This document shows, piece by piece, positions 4,688 through 27,195 of a stretch of DNA of 32,000 nt. A model generated the notes under the pieces. The model was not told where the DNA came from and did not search any database. It was given only the letters and a program-made list of their open reading frames with translations. The stretch covers positions 2,189 to 34,188 of the forward strand of contig CAJTMG010000021.1 of assembly GCA_910577405.1 (NCBI GenBank), in the 5' to 3' direction. Both the position numbers and the translations under genes were made by a program. Within the stretch, counting starts at the first letter, position 1. Every line of letters starts with the position of its first letter. This stretch comes from an uncultured Oscillibacter sp. GTDB lineage: Bacteria > Bacillota > Clostridia > Oscillospirales > Oscillospiraceae.

Positions 4688-5247
4688 GACCGCTCACAAT
4701 TTTATTTGACGCCGACGACACAGCTGAAGACCTCCAAAGCAGTTGGATAAGGCTTCTGAACCAGCGATACGGCACATCGGTCACACCTGACGACATCAAG
4801 GACTGGAATATGGCTCTTGCATTTCCCGGACTGACAAAAGACCAGATTTTCGGTGTACTCTCCGAAGAAGCCCTATGGAAAAACATTGACCCAATCCCCG
4901 GAAGTCAGCGTATCCTGCAAAAATGGTTTGACCAAGGTCATAATCTATATATGGTCACAGCCTCCGACTATCGTTCCTGCAAGGCAAAGACGGAACGGAT
5001 ATTAGAAATATTCCCGTTTCTGGATTGGGAACATATAATTTTGGCAAGCAACAAGCAGATGATATGCGGAGATATTCTGATTGACGACGGCGTACACAAT
5101 CTGATTGGCGGCAGTTATTTCAAGATTTTGTTCAGCAGGCCGCACAACAGAGGACTTTCAGTTAAACAATATGGAATCCATCGCGCAGAAACATGGGATG
5201 AAGCCGATGCCCTAGTAACCCGGTACACAAAGGAGATGCGTATATGA
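4684..5247 (+). CDS. HAD-family 5'(3')-deoxyribonucleotidase-like protein (YorS/NT5C-like)
   Basis: HAD motif I DxDxT in ILFDADDT and a later ILIDD motif; 187 aa. SD AAGGAGGG. The gene sits among nucleotide-metabolism genes. Confidence 0.6.
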   Translation: MRPLTILFDADDTAEDLQSSWIRLLNQRYGTSVTPDDIKDWNMALAFPGLTKDQIFGVLSEEALWKNIDPIPGSQRILQKWFDQGHNLYMVTASDYRSCKAKTERILEIFPFLDWEHIILASNKQMICGDILIDDGVHNLIGGSYFKILFSRPHNRGLSVKQYGIHRAETWDEADALVTRYTKEMRI

Positions 5248-7166
5248 TTGTAGTAAAAAGAGACGGAAGAGAAGTTGAATTTGACAGAAACAAGGTCAAG
5301 AACACTGTTATGAAGGCGGCTATAGAGGTTGACAAAAATATAACAATGGAAACAATCTGTCTTGCAGAAACGATTTCTAAAGAAATTACAGATTACGTTG
5401 GCAGGAAGCGCACTGTAGAAGATATTCAGGACGAAGTTGAAGAATATCTGATGGAAAGCAACCGAAAGGACATAGCGCGGGCATATATCATTTACAGAAA
5501 CGAGCGCACGAAGGTCCGGGAACGAAAAGCGGAGCTTGTACAGACGATTCTCAACCGTGCAAATTCTACAATAGATAACCGCTCCAACGCGAATGTAGAT
5601 GAAAAATCGTTTTCTGGACGAGAAAAGGAAGCGTCTTCCGATATTGGAAAGATGATTGCCCTGGACTTTGGAGGGCTTACCACAGACGTTGCAAATGCGC
5701 ATAAAGAGATGTTGATTTACCAGCACGACCTGGAAAAAGCGATTTACGGAATTCACAACTGTCTGAATTTGAACTTCCAAGAAATCTTCAACTATGGATT
5801 CCGGACCAGAAATGGAGATGTACGTCCGCCAACAAGTTTCTCCACTGCCTGCCAGCTTGCAGCGGTTGCATTCCAGTGTCAAAGCCAAGTGCAGTTTGGC
5901 GGAGTTGGAAGCATTCATCTTGACTATGACCTTGCGCCATTTGTAAAGAAGAGCTTCTACAAGCATTACGAGGACGGTTTACGCTACATTGCCCGCTTGA
6001 ATGAGGACGAAATCAAGACCCTGACGGATTTTGCAAAAAACAACGAGCTTTCCGTAGATGACGCAGCTCTCAAAACAGACGAATCCGTATATCAGTATGC
6101 AATGGATATGCTGGAAAAAGAAGGGCACCAAGCCGCGCAAGGCTTATACCACAATCTGAACACGCTGGAATCCCGTCAAGGCTCTCAGGTTCCGTTCACC
6201 AGCATCAATCTTGGACGCGACACCAGTCCAGAAGGCCGCTTGGTTACAAGATGGATTATGGAAGCAAGCATCGATGGTATCGGACACCACCATTTAACAA
6301 GTATTTTCCCGATTTCGATTTTCCAGTATAAGAAGGGCGTCAACGCGGACCCGAACAATAAGAACTACGACCTGAAGCAGCTTGCTCTGGAATCGATGAG
6401 CAAACGTATCTACCCCAATTGGTGCAACGGTGACTGGTCCCAGGCACATGAGGACGAGAACAATCCGGATACATACTTCTCCACGATGGGTTGCAGAACT
6501 CTGGTAGGATTTGACCGGAATGGCCTAGGCTATATCCGTCAGGGTCGAGGAAACAACGTCCCAAATACAATCATTCTCCCGAAACTTGGTATTGAATTTG
6601 GTATCTGTCTTGGAAAACGCACCAGCCCCGACCTGGACGGATTCTGGAAAGCATTTGAAGAAACTTTAAGACTTACAGAGACAGCATTGCTGGAACGCTT
6701 CTCTATTATGGTTCGTCAGTCGCCGAAATCTGCCCCATTTATGTACCAAAACAAGACTATTCAGGACGCAGAGGAATGTAAAGAGAATGTATTTAATGCG
6801 CTGAAGCACAACACGCTTGCCATTGGATATATTGGAATCGCGGAAATGTGCCAAGCGCTTTTTGGCGAAAACCATGCACACAACAAACGAGTACATCAAT
6901 TTGCTCTTTCGGTAGTACGCCGTATCAACGAGTTTGCAGCGGAAGCGTCGGAACGAAATGGACTGAACTTTTCATGCTATGCGTCTCCGGCGGAAAGCCT
7001 GTGTCGGACAGCGCTTATAGAACTGCGGAAACAGTACGGAGTAATTGAAAACGTCACATCCCACGAATACTTGACCAATTCCCACCATGTTCCGGTATGG
7101 GAGCAAGTATCCATTACAGAGAAATTGAACTGCGAAGCTCCATTCTGCAAATATCCGACTGGAGGT
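5244..7166 (+). CDS. nrdD: Anaerobic ribonucleoside-triphosphate reductase NrdD, exon 1
   Basis: ATP-cone N-terminus (VVKRDGREVEFDRNKVKNTVMKA) and a long class III RNR-like core. The ORF is cut by TAA at 7167..7169 before any glycyl-radical motif, and I read that TAA as the first intron bases. Confidence 0.85.
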
Positions 7167-8073
7167 TAACTCGGCTTCCAGTATAAAAAATCCCGTGAAC
7201 TATCAAATGATAGGTGTGCAATTCACATTATATTGTAGCCATAGGAAATGATGGTGAAGAATTGTGCTAACAGGGAACATCTAAACCCATAAGGGCATGA
7301 CAATCCTGTGGTAAGCTATTTGTTGCTAAATACTATAAGAGGTGGTGATTATATTCAAGAAATTTGGAAGGAAATAGAAGAGGCCCCCGCTTACCTTGTG
7401 TCAAATTTTGGAAAAGTGATGACAACACATGGGAACGGAAAGAAGATAATGAAGCAGGGAACAGACAAAGATGGATATAAAAAGATAGCTCTATCTATTG
7501 GGAATGGTAGATATATACACAGAAGAGTCCATAGGCTTGTGGCAACTGCATTTCTGGAGAACAAAAATGAGTTTCCAATTATAAATCATATTGATGGAGA
7601 TGTTACAAACAATAGAGTTGACAACTTAGAATGGTGTAACAATTCACGAAATCAATTGCACAGATACAGAGTGTTACATAAAACATGGGATGCAACAAGA
7701 CTGGGAAGACAGTATACATTCACACCGATAATAGCAAGAAATATTATATCAAAAAAAGAAATTGAATTTGATTGTGTAAACGAATGTGCAAGATACTTTT
7801 GTGTAAGTGATTCTGCAATATTCAACAGATTAAAAGGAAGAGTCAAAAATCCATCTAGCAGTCCAAAATCTCATATCAACAACTGGTATTTTGAAATCGC
7901 AACAAATAGAAACTCTAACGACCATCCGTCAGCAGAAATGCAATAGGAGTAGGGGCAGGGTGAAATTCCCTGCTGGGTGAAAACCCCTTAAATCGAAGCG
8001 CGGGACAAAAAGATATGGTCTATTCCCACTGTCAAATCAGTGTTAAAGTACCGTGAAAACGGGGGTAAAAAAG
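7167..8073 (+). mobile_element. Group I (IA2, T4 td-like) self-splicing intron carrying an HNH homing endonuclease gene
   Basis: P1: exon GGAGGU (7161..7166) pairs with intron GCUUCC (7174..7179), giving U.G at the splice site. The last intron base is G (8073). P4: CAGGG 7271..7275 with UCCUG 7304..7308. P7: GACCAU 7920..7925 with AUGGUC 8015..8020. R-like CUAACGACCAUCC and S-like AAGAUAUGGUCU elements are present. A nested hairpin sits at 7952..7987. Confidence 0.75.
7308..7946 (+). CDS. HNH homing endonuclease (NUMOD4-like N-terminus, HNH core, C-terminal HTH), intron-encoded
   Basis: WKEIEEAPAYLVSNFGKV (NUMOD4-like), NHIDGDVTNNRVDNLEWCNNSRNQLH (HNH) and CARYFCVSDSAIFNRLKG (NUMOD1/IENR-like). 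The GTG at 7308 lies inside the predicted P4 stem. The SD AGAGGTGG at 7338..7345 suggests a start nearer 7353, so the 5' end is uncertain. Confidence 0.85.
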   Translation: MVSYLLLNTIRGGDYIQEIWKEIEEAPAYLVSNFGKVMTTHGNGKKIMKQGTDKDGYKKIALSIGNGRYIHRRVHRLVATAFLENKNEFPIINHIDGDVTNNRVDNLEWCNNSRNQLHRYRVLHKTWDATRLGRQYTFTPIIARNIISKKEIEFDCVNECARYFCVSDSAIFNRLKGRVKNPSSSPKSHINNWYFEIATNRNSNDHPSAEMQ

Positions 8074-8391
8074 TGCATAACTTATATTGAGCTTGACAGC
8101 ACATTTGTCAAGAACACAAAAGCAGTTGAGGACATTATTGACTATGCGTTCAAAGAACTGGATATCCCATACCTTGCCTTTAACTTTCCTATTGACAGTT
8201 GCCTGGATTGCGGGTATCAGGGCGAGTTTAACAACAGTTGTCCGCAATGCGGGAGCAAGAACATTCAGCAGCTTCGCCGGGTAACAGGGTATCTGACGAC
8301 CGACTATCACAATTTCAACGATGGAAAACAGTCCGAGGTAGAGGAACGCGTAAAACACAGCACAAGCATGGAGACAAGGAATGAGTCATGA
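8074..8391 (+). CDS. nrdD: NrdD exon 2 (Zn ribbon plus glycyl-radical domain)
   Basis: CITYIELD..., the Zn ribbon CLDCGYQGEFNNSCPQCG and the glycyl-radical motif RRVTGYL. There is no plausible independent start. The sequence joins in frame to exon 1, giving ...KYPTGG|CITYIELD... Confidence 0.85.
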   Translation, partial: CITYIELDSTFVKNTKAVEDIIDYAFKELDIPYLAFNFPIDSCLDCGYQGEFNNSCPQCGSKNIQQLRRVTGYLTTDYHNFNDGKQSEVEERVKHSTSMETRNES

Positions 8392-8944
8392 CGGCACATT
8401 GGATGCAAAATTCAATCCTCTCTGGCGATACGCCGGAATGCAGTTTGATGACGTAGCAAACGGGGCCGGTCTGGGAGCGGTATTCTTCACGCAATACTGC
8501 CCCCACCGGTGTCCCGGATGTCAAAATCAACAGACGTGGACAAAAGACGGTGGACGCCCCTTCTCACCTTCTGATTTGGAACGATTGATGAACTATTATG
8601 ATGAAGTTCCATTTGCAAGCCGCCTGACAGTTTCCGGAGGCGACCCACTCTCAACGCCAGACCTTGTATATTATCTCGTATCGGAATTCAAGGAACGATT
8701 TCATCACAGAATCGTATGGATTTACACTGGTTTCACTCTGGAAGAACTCTTTTCGCCAGAGATTCCGGAGCAGGAAAGGGTCAAGACAAAGGAAATCCTT
8801 AAATTATGCGACGTTCTGGTAGATGGCCCATATATTCAAAATCAGCGTGACATTACGTTAAAATTCCGTGGTTCCAGCAATCAGCGCATGATTGACATAA
8901 AAAGAACCGCATACAGCGGAAAGATTACATTATATAGGGGGTAG
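8381..8944 (+). CDS. nrdG: Anaerobic RNR activating protein NrdG (radical SAM)
   Basis: CPHRCPGCQN (CX3CX2C) and VSGGDPL. The gene overlaps the nrdD stop by 11 nt. SD GGAGA lies 6 nt upstream. Confidence 0.85.
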   Translation: MSHDGTLDAKFNPLWRYAGMQFDDVANGAGLGAVFFTQYCPHRCPGCQNQQTWTKDGGRPFSPSDLERLMNYYDEVPFASRLTVSGGDPLSTPDLVYYLVSEFKERFHHRIVWIYTGFTLEELFSPEIPEQERVKTKEILKLCDVLVDGPYIQNQRDITLKFRGSSNQRMIDIKRTAYSGKITLYRG

Positions 8945-13990: not shown

Positions 13991-14728
13991 ATGCACTATT
14001 CAGTCGGTTGGTCTGGCGGAAAAGATAGCACAGCAAGCATTATACTAGCTCATATACACAATGAACCCGTTGATAGTATTGTGTTTGTAGAAGTGATGTT
14101 TGATATAGCAAATGGAATCAGTGGGGAGAACCCACAACATATTGACTTCATAAAGAATAAAGCAATACCATTATTTGAATCATGGGGATATAAAGTTGAT
14201 GTCGTTCATTCTGACCGTGATTTTCTATCCGTATTCAACAGAGTGATTGAAAGACCTACAAAGCATCTTGAACACAAAGGTCTGAAATACGGGTTCCCTC
14301 CAAATGGTCTTTGCTCAATAAAGCGAGACTGTAAAATGAGAGCGATCAAGTCATATTATAAGAACATTGCAGAAGAGTACATTCAGTATGTTGGAATTGC
14401 GGTTGACGAGCCGAAGCGTCTTGCAAGACTCCATAAAACAAAAAACATTTCTCTACTTGAAAAATATGGCCTGACAGAATCTAATGCAATGCAATTATGT
14501 AAAGAATGCGATTTATTAAGTCCAACTTATAAATTATCCAAAAGAGGTGGATGCTGGTTCTGCCCTAATGCAAAGTTGACAGAACACAGAGACATACGAA
14601 ATCGATATCCAGAAGTATGGAAGCAGTACATCAATCTTGAGTGTGAAAAGGTTGCGTTTGATAAATGGAATACGTTTTCAGATAAGACTCTTCACGATAT
14701 AGAGCAAATATTATCAAAAGAAGAATAA
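13991..14728 (+). CDS. PAPS-reductase-family PP-loop protein (IbrA/DndC-like class)
   Basis: PP-loop WSGGKDSTA near the N-terminus and a C-terminal GGCWFCPN Cys pair. No SD lies directly upstream (see the rejected note on the out-of-frame ATG at 13968). Confidence 0.75.
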   Translation: MHYSVGWSGGKDSTASIILAHIHNEPVDSIVFVEVMFDIANGISGENPQHIDFIKNKAIPLFESWGYKVDVVHSDRDFLSVFNRVIERPTKHLEHKGLKYGFPPNGLCSIKRDCKMRAIKSYYKNIAEEYIQYVGIAVDEPKRLARLHKTKNISLLEKYGLTESNAMQLCKECDLLSPTYKLSKRGGCWFCPNAKLTEHRDIRNRYPEVWKQYINLECEKVAFDKWNTFSDKTLHDIEQILSKEE

Positions 14729-15122: not shown

Positions 15123-15410
15123 ATGAATCTGAAATTAAAACCATGTCCATTCTGCGGTGGAGCCGGTAGAGTAAGAGCATTCAAAAATGGATACAGGATT
15201 GTTTGTAAAAACTGCGGTTCCACCTCACGTTACTTATTTATTCAGCCGTGGCATGACAGCAAATCAGTTGCTCAGTGTCAAGCTGCAAAAGCATGGAATT
15301 CCCGTATAAAGCAATTTTCCAGTCCTTGTGATTTATGTATGTATAATCCCCCGTCAAGTACAGATGGAAAACCGTGCAGTATGTGTCCCGCAGGCGCAAT
15401 TCACAAATAA
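15123..15410 (+). CDS. Lar-family (restriction alleviation)-like Zn-ribbon protein with an extra C-terminal Cys motif
   Basis: LKPCPFCGG...RIVCKNCG...AAKAWNSR fits the Lar-family pattern. The C-terminus PCDLCMYNPPSSTDGKPCSMCPA recurs in the protein at 20167..20457. Confidence 0.6.
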   Translation: MNLKLKPCPFCGGAGRVRAFKNGYRIVCKNCGSTSRYLFIQPWHDSKSVAQCQAAKAWNSRIKQFSSPCDLCMYNPPSSTDGKPCSMCPAGAIHK

Positions 15411-15423
15411 AAGAAAGGTTAAA

Positions 15424-15603
15424 ATGGTGACAAAAATGGCAGAGTTTTGCAGGAAATGTTTCATCAGTCGTTTAATGCCCAGCAAATATGATATAGACCA
15501 TATTGTAATGAGCGAGGACGAGGACTTTTGCGAAGGATGTATGAAGTGGGGAAAATATGTAGACCACATTGATTGCTCCGAACGCAAAGAAAATAAAGAA
15601 TAA
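15424..15603 (+). CDS. Small Cys-rich protein, paralogue of 19118..19450
   Basis: MAEFCRKCF...YD..HIVMSEDEDFCEGCM...YVDHID aligns with MAELCLKCF...YD..HIVMSKDNEFCEGCM...YVDHID. The start is ATG 15424 (SD AGAAAGG) or ATG 15436. Confidence 0.6.
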   Translation: MVTKMAEFCRKCFISRLMPSKYDIDHIVMSEDEDFCEGCMKWGKYVDHIDCSERKENKE

Positions 15604-15619: not shown

Positions 15620-16123
15620 ATGTATCAGGAACGACGTAGCGTATTTGAAACAAACTCAAGCAGCACACACAGTATTTGCATCACGAAAGACACGAGAGCA
15701 GATCATTCATATCCGAAAAAGTTGGTTTTCCGTTTGGGGGAATTCGGATGGGAGCATGAAGAACTTTTCACGCCGGAAGAGAAGGCTGCATACCTGTATA
15801 CGAGCATCTTATCTCTTCAAACCAAAGAAGAAGCAGAGCGTTCTAAAAACAAAATTTTCGCTGTGCTTGGAGAGGTCGGAATCGACTGCGAATTTGAGCA
15901 AGCGGAGTATTGGGGAGATGGCTGGCTCAGTAATGGCTATGTAGATCATGCTGGCGATGGTGACCATTATGATTTTGTCAATAAAACACTGAATAACCGA
16001 AACAGGCTGTTACGATACCTGTTCAGTGAGCAGAGCTTTGTTCTGACCGGAAATGATAATGACGATTATGGTGTCGGTATTGATGTAGATTACCCGCATG
16101 AGGAATACTACAAGGGAAACTAA
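15620..16123 (+). CDS. Uncharacterised 'FETNSSSTHS' protein 1 (167 aa)
   Basis: SD AAGGAAG upstream of ATG 15620. The N-terminus RRSVFETNSSSTHSI is shared with the next gene. Later motifs are YVDHAGDGDH and VLTGNDND. Confidence 0.7.
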   Translation: MYQERRSVFETNSSSTHSICITKDTRADHSYPKKLVFRLGEFGWEHEELFTPEEKAAYLYTSILSLQTKEEAERSKNKIFAVLGEVGIDCEFEQAEYWGDGWLSNGYVDHAGDGDHYDFVNKTLNNRNRLLRYLFSEQSFVLTGNDNDDYGVGIDVDYPHEEYYKGN

Positions 16124-16143
16124 ATTTCAGGAGGAAAAATCAA

Positions 16144-16422
16144 ATGAAGCAAATCAGAAGAGGTGTCTTTGAGACCAACAGCAGCTCCACTCACAGCATT
16201 ACAATCTGCACGCTGGAAGATTACGAAAAGTTTAAGAGAGGCGAACTTCTCTATGACAGATGGGAGGAAAAACTTGTTCCGGCAGACGCAGAGCATGTTT
16301 CCAGCGGCGACTGTGAGACATACAAGGAATTTGGCAGATATCATGAAACCTATGCTGAAGGATTTAGAACACCAAGTGGTGACGAGATTGTTGCCTTCGG
16401 GTACTATGGCTACGACGGATAA
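16144..16422 (+). CDS. Uncharacterised 'FETNSSSTHS' protein 2 (92 aa)
   Basis: SD AGGAGG 8 nt upstream. The N-terminus RRGVFETNSSSTHSI is identical in motif to protein 1 but uses different codons. Confidence 0.7.
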   Translation: MKQIRRGVFETNSSSTHSITICTLEDYEKFKRGELLYDRWEEKLVPADAEHVSSGDCETYKEFGRYHETYAEGFRTPSGDEIVAFGYYGYDG

Positions 16423-16438
16423 ACGAGGTGGTAGTGAA

Positions 16439-17368
16439 ATGAATCTTCTTGGTACATATCAGAACGGGAACTACACCGTAAAAATTTATAGTGACGGCAC
16501 CAAAATCCGTAAAAACGACCTGGATTTTTTCAAGCCGGAGTTCCCGGAGTCCATGGATATCAAGATTACCAATCAATGCGACAAGTTGTGCAAGTTCTGC
16601 CATGAAGCGTCGGTTCCTGATGGACGGCATGGGGACGTTATGAACCTTCCGTTTCTGGAGACGCTGCATCCATACACAGAACTGGCCATCGGAGGCGGCA
16701 ATCCTTTGTCGCACCCCGACCTGATTCCATTCCTTGAAGGGCTGAAGGAACGCAAGCTGATTCCAAGTATGACGGCCAATCAAACGCATTTCCTGGAGAA
16801 TATTCCTCTGTTATCGATGCTTTCTGAACGCGAACTTCTTTATGGCCTTGGAGTTTCCTTTATTTCAGGCACACCCCAGGATGAATTGAACAGAATGATT
16901 GGCGCACTGGAGAAATTTCCGAACGCAGTAATCCACGTCATTAACGGCATTGTGTCCGTAGAGGAACTGCGTGCGCTCGCTTTCCATGATTTCAAGGTAT
17001 TGATTCTTGGGTACAAGAAATTCCGGCGCGGAGCACATAACTGGGCAGAAGACGAAGAAGAGATTGTATCAAGGCAGCGCAATCTGTACGACGAGCTTCC
17101 CGCCATCATCCAGTCTGGGTGGTTCCATACGGTCAGCTTTGATAACCTGGCCGTCAATCAGTTAGGTGTCCGGCGACTGATGGATAGTGCATCATGGGAA
17201 CGTTTCTATATGGGAGACGACGGCAACTACACGATGTATGTGGACGCTGTAAACCGCGAATATGCAGTCTGCTCGGTATCACAGGTACGGTATCCTCTGA
17301 CGGATAACATCAAGGAAATGTTTGATACGGTTCTAAAAGAGCCAGAAAGGTACAGGGCAGATAAGTAA
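16439..17368 (+). CDS. Radical SAM enzyme of unknown specificity (309 aa)
   Basis: SD GAGGTGG 7 nt upstream of ATG 16439. CX3CX2C in NQCDKLCKFCH. AIGGGNPLSHPDL resembles the SGGDPLSTPDL of the NrdG in this window. Confidence 0.8.
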   Translation: MNLLGTYQNGNYTVKIYSDGTKIRKNDLDFFKPEFPESMDIKITNQCDKLCKFCHEASVPDGRHGDVMNLPFLETLHPYTELAIGGGNPLSHPDLIPFLEGLKERKLIPSMTANQTHFLENIPLLSMLSERELLYGLGVSFISGTPQDELNRMIGALEKFPNAVIHVINGIVSVEELRALAFHDFKVLILGYKKFRRGAHNWAEDEEEIVSRQRNLYDELPAIIQSGWFHTVSFDNLAVNQLGVRRLMDSASWERFYMGDDGNYTMYVDAVNREYAVCSVSQVRYPLTDNIKEMFDTVLKEPERYRADK

Positions 17369-17389
17369 TTCGCTTCAAGAGGAGATAAG

Positions 17390-17761
17390 ATGTCAAAATT
17401 GTTTGTGCTTACATTGATGGTATTCTGCCACATTGTAGACGACTATTATCTGCAAGGAGTTCTTGCATCAATGAAGCAGAAGAACTGGTGGACGCAAAAT
17501 ACTCCGGGAAAATTATACCGGTATGACTATATCGTAGCCCTGGTTATGCACGGGTTTAGCTGGACTTTTATGGTTATGCTTCCCATAGCGGCCTTATACA
17601 GTCTAAATTCACCGTATCTGTTTTATTGGTGTTTTACTCTGAATGTTGCGATACACGCTTTTACTGACAATGTGAAAGCCAATTTGCGAACAATCAATCT
17701 TATTATGGACCAATCGGTACATATTGAGCAAATCATCCTTACATTTTTACTTCTGACTTAA
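17390..17761 (+). CDS. Polytopic membrane protein (DUF3307-like by memory)
   Basis: SD GAGGAG upstream. Three to four hydrophobic helices; HIVDDYYLQG near the N-terminus and HAFTDN near the C-terminus. Confidence 0.6.
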   Translation: MSKLFVLTLMVFCHIVDDYYLQGVLASMKQKNWWTQNTPGKLYRYDYIVALVMHGFSWTFMVMLPIAALYSLNSPYLFYWCFTLNVAIHAFTDNVKANLRTINLIMDQSVHIEQIILTFLLLT

Positions 17762-18937: not shown

Positions 18938-19093
18938 TTGAAACAGGAATCATGGATTGCTCGAATTATAAATCGACTGTTAGAGCGTCTTGGAATAATC
19001 AAAATGTATGGAATTAGCAAAGAGGATATGTGCAAAGGTGCGCAATCTATTTGCAATAGAAATTGTGATTCTTGCGCATGGAAAAGTGAATGA
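18938..19093 (+). CDS. Possible small Cys-rich ORF (51 aa) below the ORF-track cutoff
   Basis: My own translation from TTG 18938: KQESWIARIINRLLERLGIIKMYGISKEDMCKGAQSICNRNCDSCAWKSE, then stop. It fills an otherwise empty 187-nt gap. GAAAGG lies about 10 nt upstream. Confidence 0.3.
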   Translation: MKQESWIARIINRLLERLGIIKMYGISKEDMCKGAQSICNRNCDSCAWKSE

Positions 19094-19117
19094 AAGGTTA
19101 ATTTGGTGGTGGTATAA

Positions 19118-19450
19118 ATGGCAGAATTGTGTTTGAAATGTTTCCTTGAAACTTGGCGTCCAAACGCATATGACCGTGCCCATATTGTAATGAGCAAAGA
19201 CAATGAGTTTTGCGAAGGATGTATGGATTGCGTTCCGTATGTAGACCATATCGACCCGTCTGATTTGCGGCGCACTCCAACGGTAGCAGACTTTGTTCAG
19301 GTAGTGGTTCCAGAAATAAAGGCTGGGCGTAAAATTGCCTGCACAGAATGCGGTGCCACTTTTGAAGATGATGATTTGGCTTTTGCGCATGAAGTCGGTG
19401 AATGTCCATACTGCCACACACAAGTCAGGGCGCTTTGGATGAGAGAATAA
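19118..19450 (+). CDS. Cys-rich protein, paralogue of 15424..15603 with an extra C-terminal Zn ribbon
   Basis: See 15424..15603. The additional C-terminus carries CTECG...CPYC. SD GGTGGTGG upstream. Confidence 0.65.
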   Translation: MAELCLKCFLETWRPNAYDRAHIVMSKDNEFCEGCMDCVPYVDHIDPSDLRRTPTVADFVQVVVPEIKAGRKIACTECGATFEDDDLAFAHEVGECPYCHTQVRALWMRE

Positions 19451-21915: not shown

Positions 21916-22014
21916 ACCCATATGACAGCAATGATAAAAGTCTTTATCTTTGCTGTCATTTATGTTATAATGATTATGGGTATAGGTTGGTTATTGAAAG
22001 GAGAACCAACGAAA

Positions 22015-23523
22015 ATGAGAATAGCCGCATATTGCCGTGTATCAACCGATGAAGAGAAACAGCTTGATAGCTTGGCGAACCAGAAAAATTTTTTTGAAGA
22101 GTATGCAGCAAAGAATGGTCACGTATTAGTACGTTTGTATGCTGATGAGGGCATTTCTGGGACCAGCTTGAAAAAGCGTGACGAGTTTATTAGACTTCTA
22201 TACGATGCCAAACTTGGATTATTTGACATGGTTGTTGTTAAAGACGTATCCAGGCTGGCAAGGAATACAGTAGACTTCCTGCAAAGCATCCGTACACTGA
22301 AAGGACTTGGAATAAATACACTGTTTCTCACTTCAAATATGGACAGCCTTGGTGAATCAGAATTCGTCCTTACGTTATTTGGTGCTATGGCGCAGGAAGA
22401 AAGCGCTAATCTTAGCAAGCGAGTAAAATTTGGCAAAGAAATCAGCGCAAAAAAAGGCAGGGTTCCGCAGAGAGTTTTCGGATATGATAGAATCGACAAC
22501 TTTACTCTCGTTATCAATGAAAAAGAAGCACAGATTGTTCGTGAAATTTACCGTATGTATATTGAAGAAGGGCTTGGATGTCGCAAAATCAGTATTAAAT
22601 TAAACGAATCTGGACATAAAACAAAATTTAATTGTGAATGGAACCCAAGAGGTGTTAGGCGTGTACTAGAAAATCCAATCTATAGTGGACACTATATCAA
22701 TCACAAATATGAAGTTGGAGACTACTTAGTAGGAAAGGTAGTACGTACTCCAGAGGACCAGCACTTTCACCATGATAGGCCAGAATGGGAGATCGTGTCT
22801 CCGGAAACATTTGCAAAAGCACAAAAACAGTTAGAAATGCGTCGAAAACAATATAATACCGGAGAACCATTTATGCAGGCACGATACAGTAGCAAGTACA
22901 TATTTAGCACTCTAATCAAATGTGAACATTGCGGTCGTTCCTTTTCAAGAAAAGTCCACAAATATGTTAATACTTATATATATTGGGTATGTCCAACAAA
23001 TTATCAATACACAGCAGAAAAATGTGATAATAAAACTAAATTAAGAGAGGACATCCTTCTTTCTAAAGTCAAAGAATATCTTGCATCATTGATTCAAGAC
23101 AAAAGCACTTTTGTAAATAAGATAATTGAAGAAATAGAGAAACAAAATCAAACAAAATGCATCAAACATGATGCCTCAGATATAAAAATGAAGCGTAAAC
23201 GTCTCATCGCAAAAAAAGAACGATACCAGGAAATGTACGCAAATGATGTAATGACCATGACCGAACTAAAAGAAAAGACAGCCGCAATTGCAGAAGAGCT
23301 AGAACGGCTTGACTGCTCAATGAAACAATATGCGCAAATGATTGCTTTTCAAAAGAATGGAGAAGATTACATAAGGCGTTATATACAAGATATCGAGCAA
23401 TTCCTAAATATGGAGACAGTAACGAACATAGATATGCGAAAAGTAATAAGTCGTATCACAGTAAACAAAGACAAAACCATAAAAATTGAACTGAAGAAAT
23501 TTGATATCGATGACATACTATAG
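22015..23523 (+). CDS. Large serine recombinase (phage integrase)
   Basis: MRIAAYCRVSTDEEKQLDSLANQ...VVVKDVSRLARN is the resolvase catalytic domain with the Ser in RVST. A recombinase/Zn-ribbon region (CEHCGRSF...WVCP) and a coiled-coil tail follow. SD AAAGGAG precedes ATG 22015. The hydrophobic extension from 21922 is not credible. Confidence 0.9.
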   Translation: MRIAAYCRVSTDEEKQLDSLANQKNFFEEYAAKNGHVLVRLYADEGISGTSLKKRDEFIRLLYDAKLGLFDMVVVKDVSRLARNTVDFLQSIRTLKGLGINTLFLTSNMDSLGESEFVLTLFGAMAQEESANLSKRVKFGKEISAKKGRVPQRVFGYDRIDNFTLVINEKEAQIVREIYRMYIEEGLGCRKISIKLNESGHKTKFNCEWNPRGVRRVLENPIYSGHYINHKYEVGDYLVGKVVRTPEDQHFHHDRPEWEIVSPETFAKAQKQLEMRRKQYNTGEPFMQARYSSKYIFSTLIKCEHCGRSFSRKVHKYVNTYIYWVCPTNYQYTAEKCDNKTKLREDILLSKVKEYLASLIQDKSTFVNKIIEEIEKQNQTKCIKHDASDIKMKRKRLIAKKERYQEMYANDVMTMTELKEKTAAIAEELERLDCSMKQYAQMIAFQKNGEDYIRRYIQDIEQFLNMETVTNIDMRKVISRITVNKDKTIKIELKKFDIDDIL

Positions 23524-25366: not shown

Positions 25367-25698
25367 CCGTATCCGCAGCACGGGCAGGGAGGTGAGGCCA
25401 AAGACCGGCGGAACACTTTGCACGCGTCCATAAAAAATAACTATATTTTGTATATGCGACATATTGATAATACTAAAACAATGTGCTGTCATCTTCTTGA
25501 GGGAGGTGAAGCAAATGTTACAGACTATGCTCAGCATCCGAATGAACGACCAGCAGAAACGGGATTTTGACAGCATTTGCAGCGAACCGGGATCGTGTCC
25601 TGCAAGGAGCATTACGAATGAAGGCCAAAACAGATACAAAAGCAGCAACGCCCCCAGCCAAACGAGGTTGGGGGTATTCTTTTTGGAAGGAGGGCCGT

Positions 25699-27195
25699 AT
25701 GTCGGAAAAAGGGAATCTTACGGGACTGCGGGCGTACGCGTATCTGCGGAAATCCCGGATGGAGGAAGGCATGGACACGGAAACGGTGCTCCGGCGTCAT
25801 CGGGAGGCCCTGGAAGAATGCGCGGCGGAGCACGGTTTGTCAATACAGGCGTACTTTCCGGAGGTAGTCAGCGGTGAGAGCCTGTACGCCCGGCCCCAGA
25901 TGCTGCGGCTTCTGGAGGCGGTGGAAAAGGGGGAATGCGGCGCGGTGCTCTGCATGGATTTGGACCGGCTGTCGAGAGGCCGCATGAAGGACCAAGGCAT
26001 GATTCTGGACGCCTTCAAGGACAGCGGGACACTGATCGTGACGCCGGAAAAGATTTATGATTTGTCTGACGAGATCGACGACGAGCTTGCGGAATTCAAG
26101 ACCTTTATGTCCCGCCGGGAATATAAAATCATCAACAAGCGCTTACGGCGGGGACTCCAGCGGTCCATACGGGAGGGCTGTTATATTGCCAACGCGCCCT
26201 ACGGCTACCGCAAAACTGCTGTCGGCCGCCGTCCCACGCTGGAAATCTTCGAGCCGGAGGCAAAATTCGTCCGCGTCATGTTCCAGCTCTACGCCAGCGG
26301 TTACGGCTGCACATCCATTGCGGGACAGGTGAACGCCATGGGAGCGCGGCCACACCGGTCCTCCGCCTTTTCCCGGAACAGTGTGGCGAAGATTCTTCGG
26401 AACCCGGTCTACATCGGAAAAATCGTCTGGGATCAGAAAACCCACGTCAAAAAGAACGCCGGAGGCACGGTAAAGCGTCTCACAATCAGCAATCCGCCGG
26501 AGAAATGGACGGTTGCCGAAGGTCTGCATCCACCCATTATCGAGAAGGAGCTATTTGACCGCGTGCAGGAAATCATAGCGGGACGCTGCCGGCCTGGGAC
26601 GCATGATGGAAGCGTCAGGAATCCGCTGGCAGGGCTGGTACGGTGCGGTATCTGCGGCGGGCCTATGCAGCGGATGACCCTGAAAGGAGAAGCATACCTG
26701 CTGTGTCCCCGGAAGGGGTGCTGTGCGGCGGCAAAATTCACGCTGGCCGAGGGTCGGGTACTGCGGCATTTGGAGGACCTTCTGGCGGGGATGGAACCGG
26801 CGCTGTCTTCAGGCCGTCCGGATTTGCCGCTGCTGGAAACCGCCATATCGGATATCAGCGCCTCCCTGTCTGCCGCCCAACGTCAAAAGATCCGCCTGCA
26901 TGAGCTTCTGGAACTGGGCGAGTACGATTTGCCTACCTACCGGGCACGGATGGAGGCAGTAACGGAAAAGCTGTCGGAACTGGAACGGCAGCGCGAGGAA
27001 GCCCGTCTGCGTTTGGAGCAGGCCCTGCAAAGCCAATCAGAAAAGGTGCAAAGCGTGCTGGACGCCTACAGAACCAGCGATGCGGCACAGAAAAACGCCC
27101 TTCTGCATTCTGTTATTGAGCAGATCACATACTACAAGGAAAAGAAGAGCAGACCCGCCGATTTTCAGCTTGAGTTTATACTGAAACCCGGTTGA
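25699..27195 (+). CDS. Large serine recombinase (SpoIVCA/CisA-like) of the mini-element
   Basis: SD GGAAGGAGGG 4 nt upstream of ATG 25699. AYAYLRKSRMEE...LCMDLDRLSRG is the catalytic domain. A recombinase domain and Zn ribbon (CGICGGPM...LLCPRKGC) and a coiled-coil tail follow. Confidence 0.9.
   Translation: MSEKGNLTGLRAYAYLRKSRMEEGMDTETVLRRHREALEECAAEHGLSIQAYFPEVVSGESLYARPQMLRLLEAVEKGECGAVLCMDLDRLSRGRMKDQGMILDAFKDSGTLIVTPEKIYDLSDEIDDELAEFKTFMSRREYKIINKRLRRGLQRSIREGCYIANAPYGYRKTAVGRRPTLEIFEPEAKFVRVMFQLYASGYGCTSIAGQVNAMGARPHRSSAFSRNSVAKILRNPVYIGKIVWDQKTHVKKNAGGTVKRLTISNPPEKWTVAEGLHPPIIEKELFDRVQEIIAGRCRPGTHDGSVRNPLAGLVRCGICGGPMQRMTLKGEAYLLCPRKGCCAAAKFTLAEGRVLRHLEDLLAGMEPALSSGRPDLPLLETAISDISASLSAAQRQKIRLHELLELGEYDLPTYRARMEAVTEKLSELERQREEARLRLEQALQSQSEKVQSVLDAYRTSDAAQKNALLHSVIEQITYYKEKKSRPADFQLEFILKPG

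Follow-up and report, generated by a model that had tools for sequence, protein, structure and literature searches.

Why should two otherwise dissimilar proteins begin with the same short peptide, beside a radical enzyme, and how many of the surrounding genes belong with them? The questions are raised by four closely spaced genes, g1 to g4 (Table 1), at positions 15620-17761 of a 32,000-nucleotide stretch of DNA from an uncultured Oscillibacter sp. (assembly GCA_910577405.1, contig CAJTMG010000021.1, positions 2,189 to 34,188), referred to here as the window. The g1 and g2 proteins have in common the N-terminal tag M-x-x-x-R-x-x-V-FETNSSSTHS-I, g3 encodes a radical S-adenosylmethionine (rSAM) enzyme, and g4 encodes a small membrane protein. 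A preliminary description took the four as a single cassette; comparison with related loci gives a smaller answer. The conserved unit is one or more tagged proteins together with a single-cluster rSAM enzyme, a two-component module of large phages.

The conserved unit and its carriers

Two sets of related loci were compared: 80 viral loci from IMG/VR, found with a g1 profile, and 80 genome loci from GTDB, found with a profile of the rSAM enzyme. In the g1-seeded set a rSAM gene adjoins the tagged gene in all but four loci, three of them cut at a contig end and the fourth (L027) without a rSAM match. In the rSAM-seeded set a tagged neighbor was detected by phmmer in 65 of 80 loci, and in 6 more by motif search. 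When all open reading frames (ORFs) of 88 loci were clustered to find co-conserved families, two were near-universal, the tagged proteins (170 of them, in 88/88 loci) and the rSAM enzymes (83/88); the next commonest neighbor family reached 15/88.

Pooling gave 164 rSAM loci; in 153 of them (93%) a tagged gene lies on the same strand no more than 3 kb away, so that the preliminary suggestion of a link between motif and rSAM gene has held up. The tagged gene is upstream of the rSAM gene in 144 of these loci and downstream only in 8. Upstream genes are separated from it by a median gap of 14 nt: 42 overlap or abut it, and 79 lie within 1-30 nt. The gene adjoining the rSAM gene is of the g2 type in 85 of the 144 upstream cases. 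Each rSAM has one to three tagged partners, the gene sets per locus being g1 plus g2 (72), class 2 alone (32), g1 alone (27) and g2 alone (9). Defined as [FY]-E-T-N-S-S-S-x-H in the first ~20 residues of a protein plus a g3-family rSAM gene within 3 kb, the module is present in the window, with g2 and g1 lying 16 and 315 nt upstream of g3 on the same strand.

The fourth gene does not travel with the others. The g4 protein falls just short of the Pfam cut-off for DUF3307 (PF11750; 21.7 bits against 23, over profile positions 1-106 of 127), matches phrog_2470 ("membrane protein") at 6.6e-12, and contains the HIVDD and HAFTD motifs pointed out in the preliminary description. Only 3 of 168 loci contain a relative of g4, 4.4-5 kb from the rSAM gene, and beside a rSAM 76% identical to that of the window there is neither a DUF3307 gene nor a g1-type gene nearby. 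A search of the literature on DUF3307 found nothing relevant. The four-gene operon was therefore rejected as the unit in favor of the tagged protein(s) and the rSAM enzyme. Among the partners no C-terminal domain is universal, whereas the tag is.

Carriers are diverse. In a tblastn search of GenBank phages the pair turned up in every one of the 15 records for Lak megaphages and in the nine for Microcystis phages of the Ma-LMM01/MaMV-DC group; in Ma-LMM01 the tagged protein is gp130 (MLSIQVRQGVFETNSSSTHS...FFYKGN), encoded two genes upstream of gp128 ("Fe-S oxidoreductase"). With cultured Microcystis phages among its carriers, the module is not confined to anaerobes. Others include many 100-190 kb gut and rumen phages and a Salmonella phage. 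Contigs carrying the module are assigned to Bacillota, Bacteroidota, Mycoplasmatota, Patescibacteria and Planctomycetota metagenome-assembled genomes (MAGs) and, in a few cases, to isolates (Eubacterium plexicaudatum ASF492, for instance), host assignments that are soft, depending as they do on the binning of phage contigs. At the DNA level, a search of the region against GenBank phages gave no match.

In the Salmonella phage, Arash, the two components are joined. Its gp146c (OQ632216.1; L171, 3491-4921) is a single chain of 476 amino acids (aa), of which residues 5-141 match the g1 profile (35 bits, with W, DH and GNDN retained) and residues 171-451 match the rSAM profile (93 bits); the tag at its N terminus reads IRYGFATNSSSSHS. 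The fusion argues for physical cooperation of the g1-type and rSAM parts, and the GenBank annotation as a "methyltransferase" looks wrong. A scan of IMG/VR turned up no relatives of the fusion. The paper describing Arash does not discuss gp146c (PMC10585845); Gp146 is absent from its permissive virion proteome of 116 proteins, in which Gp143 and Gp149 are listed (PMC10585845, Table 2).

The tag, its bearers and the enzyme

How much of the shared peptide is conserved? The preliminary description recognized an invariant 13-mer preceded by RR. The confinement of the similarity to this region is borne out: the BLASTP alignment of g1 and g2 covers residues 1-21 and no more, 17 of these 21 being identical (the N-terminal peptide of g2 is GVFETNSSSTHSITICTLEDYEK). 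The pair of arginines is not, as only R5 is invariant and the second Arg is not conserved in the family alignments. The family consensus is M-x-x-[IV]-R-x-x-[VI]-[FY]-E-T-N-S-S-S-x-H-[ST], placed at the extreme N terminus and starting a few residues after Met1. An alignment of 52 g1-type sequences shows no variation at R5, F9, E10, T11, N12, S13, S14, S15 and H17; in 15 proteins representing different classes the list is the same except for S15, which is nearly invariant.

Selection acts on the peptide. The 30-mers encoding FETNSSSTHS in g1 and g2 differ at 9 of 30 bases, in agreement with the different codon usage reported earlier, and 210 exact instances of FETNSSSxHS are encoded by 160 distinct DNA 30-mers, with all six Ser codons (AGY and TCN) occurring at each Ser position of the tag. 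Such codon diversity behind one peptide indicates long-standing purifying selection on the peptide and not on the DNA, which is what the preliminary description had proposed. Two readings of the motif as a familiar signal were dropped. A twin-arginine signal was rejected, since only one Arg is conserved. The bacterial N-glycosylation sequon is D/E-x-N-x-S/T, which E-T-N-S-S fits; this was set aside, no glycosyltransferase or other third gene being linked to the module. A search of the literature yielded no account of the motif, nor of the tagged and rSAM genes of Ma-LMM01.

The tagged proteins belong to no described family, as had been suspected. Neither g1 nor g2 has a match in Pfam, NCBIfam or PADLOC, and the g1 profile finds nothing meaningful among Protein Data Bank (PDB) sequences (best E 0.65). 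The g1 protein matches phrog_28997, annotated as unknown function, at 3.6e-23, and g2 matches it through residues 3-22 only. All 1,226 homologs of g1 are unnamed or "hypothetical." A HMMER scan of 1.84 billion representative sequences with the g1 profile recovered a superfamily of 4,332 clusters at 50% identity (E ≤ 0.001); the best 150 matches, to proteins of 124-200 aa, almost all start at one of the first few residues.

The AlphaFold2 (AF2) model of g1 is confident (predicted local distance difference test, pLDDT, 87; predicted TM-score 0.85), with residues 1-12 alone disordered (pLDDT <50). Foldseek found no structural match for it in the PDB (best E 0.48, TM-score at most 0.27), and its sole match in BFVD is one uncharacterized phage protein. 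The g1 type has conserved residues of its own: W44, K55/A56/Y58, D109-H110, T143-G-N-D-N147, Y158 and K165. Two stretches had been picked out in g1 as suggestive of metal binding; in YVDHAGDGDH only D109-H110 is conserved and the rest is not, and in LTGNDND the T-G-N-D-N portion is conserved. FETNSSS, GNDN and DxxH resemble the blocks of SGNH hydrolases, a reading that was rejected because the DxxH positions are not conserved and no fold match was found. The g2 type consists of little beyond the tag and a short tail, with a conserved C-terminal VAFGxYGxD.

Beyond the tag, the bearers diverge. When 284 tagged ORFs were sorted by the sequence after residue 24, they fell into 12 unrelated C-terminal classes: the g1 type (typically ~177 aa, 113 loci), the g2 type (~123 aa, 89 loci), a Cys-rich class (~201 aa, 32 loci) and nine small classes of varied length, each in few loci. 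Pfam assigned none of 15 representatives of other tag classes to a family. Partner proteins overall span 90-320 aa. Hits of 35-74 aa topped the motif-profile search and look like truncated g2-type genes; the tagged proteins were on this account rejected as short peptides of the RiPP kind (ribosomally synthesized and post-translationally modified peptides). One such hit was traced to a 48-aa gene call on a frameshifted contig (L169, ENA opera_contig_97334). On this 245-kb phage contig, from a hybrid assembly, the reading frames of the tagged genes and the rSAM gene are broken by numerous frameshifts, and frameshifts of this type probably account for many more of the tag "proteins" of 35-74 aa recorded in the protein database.

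The g3 protein is a member of the radical SAM superfamily. Its match to the Pfam Radical_SAM family (PF04055) is below the cut-off (22.5 bits against 29.5), and many of its homologs have a precomputed PF04055 match; it matches phrog_16999 ("Fe-S oxidoreductase") at 1e-45. Homologs number more than 7,182, and the partner rSAM enzymes form more than 7,000 clusters at 90% identity. The CDKLCKFC and GGGNPLSHPDL motifs quoted in the preliminary description are both present. Across 46 homologs C47, C51 and C54 of the CxxxCxxC motif are invariant and no other Cys is; with no conserved Cys beyond the motif, g3 is without an auxiliary cluster. In the SAM-binding region G85-G86-G87-N-P89 is conserved, and a three-stranded sheet at the N terminus (residues 3-25) has invariant G5, N9, D19-G-T-K22 and R24.

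The AF2 model of g3 (pLDDT 90.9) consists of alternating beta and alpha elements, and all nine Foldseek matches at E ≤ 0.001 are rSAM enzymes. The closest structures are SuiB (1.6e-7, TM-score 0.55-0.61), BlsE (2.2e-5), SpeY (7.2e-5), AbmM and PqqE; in sequence, g3 resembles solved structures over the generic rSAM core only. The earlier label "activase/QueE-like" was narrower than the evidence allows: QueE comes no higher than 15th among the structural matches (E 6.5e-3), and no glycyl-radical features were found. Against NCBIfam and PADLOC g3 has only generic rSAM matches far below threshold (ScmE, MoaA, HxsC, viperin), and a Pfam scan found no RRE, SPASM or Fer4_12 family in it.

One homolog of g3 has acquired an intein. 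In a Lachnospiraceae MAG contig (JAMPFE010000163.1; L166, 292-2331) a rSAM ORF of 679 aa is interrupted inside CxxxCxxC, the site reading CDMECKF / C...LVHN / CHEGSS. Inteins favor the most conserved sites of important genes.

Possible roles for the tag

The possibility that we favor, at a little short of even probability, is that the rSAM enzyme engages the N-terminal tag of its partners and modifies it, one of two ideas put forward in the preliminary description. The tag is the candidate substrate because it alone is universal among several unrelated partners per enzyme, and because it lies at a free N terminus that is disordered in the monomer model; disorder there, in an otherwise confident g1 model, is as expected of a segment ordered by a partner. 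The best structural neighbor of g3, SuiB, is itself a peptide-modifying enzyme. Also in favor are the close linkage of tagged and rSAM genes with no third family conserved beside them, the protein-level selection on the tag, and the Arash fusion. We infer from these features both the contact between tag and enzyme and the modification of the tag. The flexible tag would enter the open side of the rSAM barrel, where it could pair as a beta-strand with the N-terminal sheet of g3; a 5'-deoxyadenosyl radical would then abstract a hydrogen from one of the tag's Ser, Thr, His or Asn residues, and the resulting post-translational modification would be needed by the partner's variable C-terminal domain. 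Candidate modifications are the oxidation of Ser to a formylglycine-type residue and a cross-link within the molecule.

A bolder form of tag modification is that a dedicated minimal rSAM enzyme, without auxiliary clusters, installs in the invariant decapeptide a residue or cross-link on which the activity of the tagged proteins depends, and so creates a new protein-derived cofactor or radical site. This is conceivable and, in our judgment, rather unlikely. It would include a use of the matured tagged proteins, by phages ranging from gut megaphages to cyanophages, in the replication phase of infection, a proposal about which we are equally doubtful.

Are there known systems of this kind? The closest functional parallels are the anaerobic sulfatase-maturating enzymes (anSMEs) with their sulfatases, and the activases with their glycyl-radical enzymes. 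An anSME of the AtsB/ChuR type is encoded beside its target, one maturase can serve several targets, and the modification creates a catalytic residue; the enzyme has a SPASM domain with two auxiliary clusters, and the target motif in the sulfatase is C/S-x-P-x-R. The module resembles this arrangement in having a rSAM gene beside its presumed protein target or targets, and a short invariant Ser-containing motif near the target's N terminus; here, too, the modification would create a catalytic residue. It differs in that g3 has three conserved Cys only, the tag is FETNSSSxHS and not C/S-x-P-x-R, and the partners are proteins of 90-320 aa of which the g1 type, the only one modeled, has no fold match in the PDB. 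No anSME model is among the NCBIfam matches of g3.

The activases PflA and NrdG, which act on PFL, NrdD and GrcA, are like g3 small single-cluster rSAM enzymes with a folded protein as partner; phage-encoded cases exist, and the window itself contains NrdD and NrdG. The conserved site is N-terminal in the tagged proteins, whereas in glycyl-radical enzymes it is C-terminal. Pfam found no Gly_radical match in g1, g2 or the class representatives and no Fer4_12 or activase match in g3, whereas the window's NrdD and NrdG do match glycyl-radical and activase families (NrdG: Fer4_12).

Among the best structural neighbors of g3, the SPASM/twitch enzymes SuiB and PqqE stand beside BlsE, SpeY and AbmM, and RiPP maturases also are encoded beside several precursors with a common conserved segment. 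Unlike SuiB and PqqE, g3 lacks the C-terminal Cys residues of an auxiliary cluster, and its partners are folded proteins, not short peptides. The g3 enzyme thus lacks the defining features of all three groups, SPASM/twitch, activase and anSME. In the His-Xaa-Ser system (HxsA-D, TIGR03977), itself uncharacterized, rSAMs have likewise been paired by genome context with a His- and Ser-containing target; g3 scores only 17 bits against the HxsC cut-off of 268, and the tag is a single copy and not an H-x-S repeat. The remaining counterparts, phrog_28997 with Ma-LMM01 gp130 and phrog_16999 with gp128, are the same families as g1 and g3, respectively, and contribute names only.

Several observations weigh against modification of the tag. 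About 7% of rSAM loci are without a tagged gene, and some of these resemble chromosomal contexts; the tag of the Arash fusion has Ala in place of Glu; and the known protein- or peptide-oxidizing rSAM enzymes (anSME, SPASM/twitch) carry auxiliary clusters, which g3 does not. Fusion of an enzyme to its partner, as in Arash, is more usual for subunits than for substrates, the overlap of many g1-rSAM gene pairs suggests a stoichiometric complex, and the g1-type domain's own conserved residues look like an active site.

The last three of these points count at the same time in favor of another possibility, that the tagged proteins are subunits or adaptors: the tag would dock on the rSAM enzyme and complete its active site, and the C-terminal domains would bind small-molecule, nucleotide or nucleic-acid substrates. 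Besides the single-chain arrangement in Arash, gene pairs that are frequently overlapping or translationally coupled, and g1-type residues that resemble a binding site, the location of the module among replication and nucleotide-metabolism genes fits such a role. An essential subunit would be expected to be universal, however, and no partner class is; up to three different partners accompany one rSAM, and the g2 type offers little more than the tag and a short tail with which to bind anything. Disorder of the tag in the monomer model is compatible with substrate and subunit alike. Taking both sides into account, a subunit or adaptor role is possible, without being probable.

A further possibility is that the gene products are physically separate enzymes that act in succession in one pathway, such as nucleotide or DNA modification, and that the motif is a catalytic or ligand-binding loop. 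The DNA-metabolism neighbors suit this idea, as do the cysteine desulfurase, DNA methylase or PP-loop ATPase genes found near the module in ~10 of 88 loci and, in the window, an SspD-like PP-loop gene 0.9 kb upstream of g1. It is nonetheless improbable: no third gene is conserved with the tag-rSAM pair, the g1 model is least ordered where the motif lies, and a catalytic loop carried by at least 12 unrelated C-terminal sequences and fixed at residues ~9-18 would be unusual.

The internal proteins of phage T4 carry a capsid-targeting sequence, and tandem paralogs sharing only a short N-terminal peptide show the same pattern. Even so, it is very improbable that the motif serves in sorting or processing (as a capsid-targeting or secretion signal) and has nothing to do with the rSAM enzyme, given the 93% adjacency to rSAM genes and the fusion in Arash, the position of the module away from structural genes, the absence of Arash Gp146 from the 116-protein virion proteome (PMC10585845, Table 2), and the single conserved Arg, which does not make a twin-arginine signal.

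What is at stake in choosing between modification of the tag and a subunit role? Neither the 4,332 clusters (50% identity) of tagged proteins nor the more than 7,000 clusters (90%) of rSAM enzymes have a Pfam or NCBIfam family model, a solved structure or published work on function, and an invariant decapeptide on otherwise unrelated proteins beside one radical enzyme predicts new rSAM protein chemistry. If the tag is modified, the modification would be a new post-translational one; if the tagged proteins are subunits, they would exemplify a composite radical enzyme assembled in a new way. In either case a recurrent stretch of phage "dark matter" in replication modules would gain a function. 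Ma-LMM01 gp128/gp130 and Arash gp146c offer two tractable systems.

Gene layout and surroundings

Table 1. Positions in the window of the four genes and of the conserved motifs within them.
Feature	Position	Strand	Description	Basis
g1	15620-16123	+	167-aa FETNSSS-tagged protein, g1 type (class 0), folded alpha/beta domain	ORF and Shine-Dalgarno site
g1 N-terminal tag, R5 to I19	15632-15676	+	RRSVFETNSSSTHSI	Family alignments
g2	16144-16422	+	92-aa FETNSSS-tagged protein, g2 type (class 1)	ORF and Shine-Dalgarno site
g2 N-terminal tag	16156-16200	+	RRGVFETNSSSTHSI	Alignments, codon comparison
g3	16439-17368 (ATG at 16439)	+	309-aa single-cluster rSAM enzyme	ORF, homologs, model
g3 cluster-binding motif	16577-16600	+	CxxxCxxC (CDKLCKFC)	Invariant in homologs
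g4	17390-17761	+	123-aa DUF3307-like polytopic membrane protein	Sub-threshold Pfam match, phrog_2470

The tight packing described earlier is confirmed. Gaps of 20, 16 and 21 nt separate g1 from g2, g2 from g3 and g3 from g4, and a purine-rich Shine-Dalgarno sequence (AGGAAG, AGGAGG, GAGGTGG or GAGGAG) precedes each start. The block contains no convincing promoter or terminator, and the next sizeable gap with promoter-like sites comes after 18023. Probably g4 is co-transcribed.

The window as a whole is a replication and nucleotide-metabolism region of a phage or prophage, encoding DNA polymerase III alpha, ThyX, a deoxynucleoside monophosphate kinase, NT5C, a split NrdD, NrdG and Lar. In related loci the module has as neighbors polymerases or primase, RNA or DNA ligases, Thg1 and nicotinamide adenine dinucleotide (NAD)-salvage genes. 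It usually lies among replication and nucleotide-metabolism genes, with neighbors that are inconsistent from locus to locus. In loci L005-L008 a cysteine desulfurase, a DNA methylase and a gene resembling phosphoadenosine phosphosulfate reductase follow directly after the module. In L172 (281-3688), the locus with the 76%-identical rSAM, genes for NAD synthase, DNA ligase, an isochorismatase-family protein and a protein resembling phosphoribosyl pyrophosphate synthetase lie just upstream of the g2-type gene, possibly as a NAD-salvage block.

Some other genes of the window deserve mention. The PP-loop ATPase (SGGKDS) upstream of g1 is at 13991-14728; it matches PADLOC SspD, the ATP pyrophosphatase of phosphorothioation, at 4.3e-12 and has no Pfam match at E ≤ 0.01. 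The anaerobic NrdD (5244-8391) is split into an ORF of 641 aa, with an ATP-cone and NRDD positions 2-470, and one of 112 aa, with NRDD positions 471-562 and the glycyl-radical domain; a HNH/NUMOD4 homing-endonuclease gene (7308-7946) separates the two, and NrdG follows at 8381-8944.

Two large serine recombinases with Resolvase, Recombinase and Zn_ribbon_recom domains are encoded at 21922-23523 and 25567-27195. Their presence points to an end of the phage region, or to a second mobile element, in the right third of the window. Closer to the cassette, two small Cys-rich paralogous ORFs (54% identical), at 15405-15603 and 19084-19450, bracket the 3.7-kb segment that contains it. The DNA just upstream of each is 75-80% identical to that of the other, at a spacing of ~3,682 nt, and these repeats may represent an old segmental duplication or a boundary of the module.

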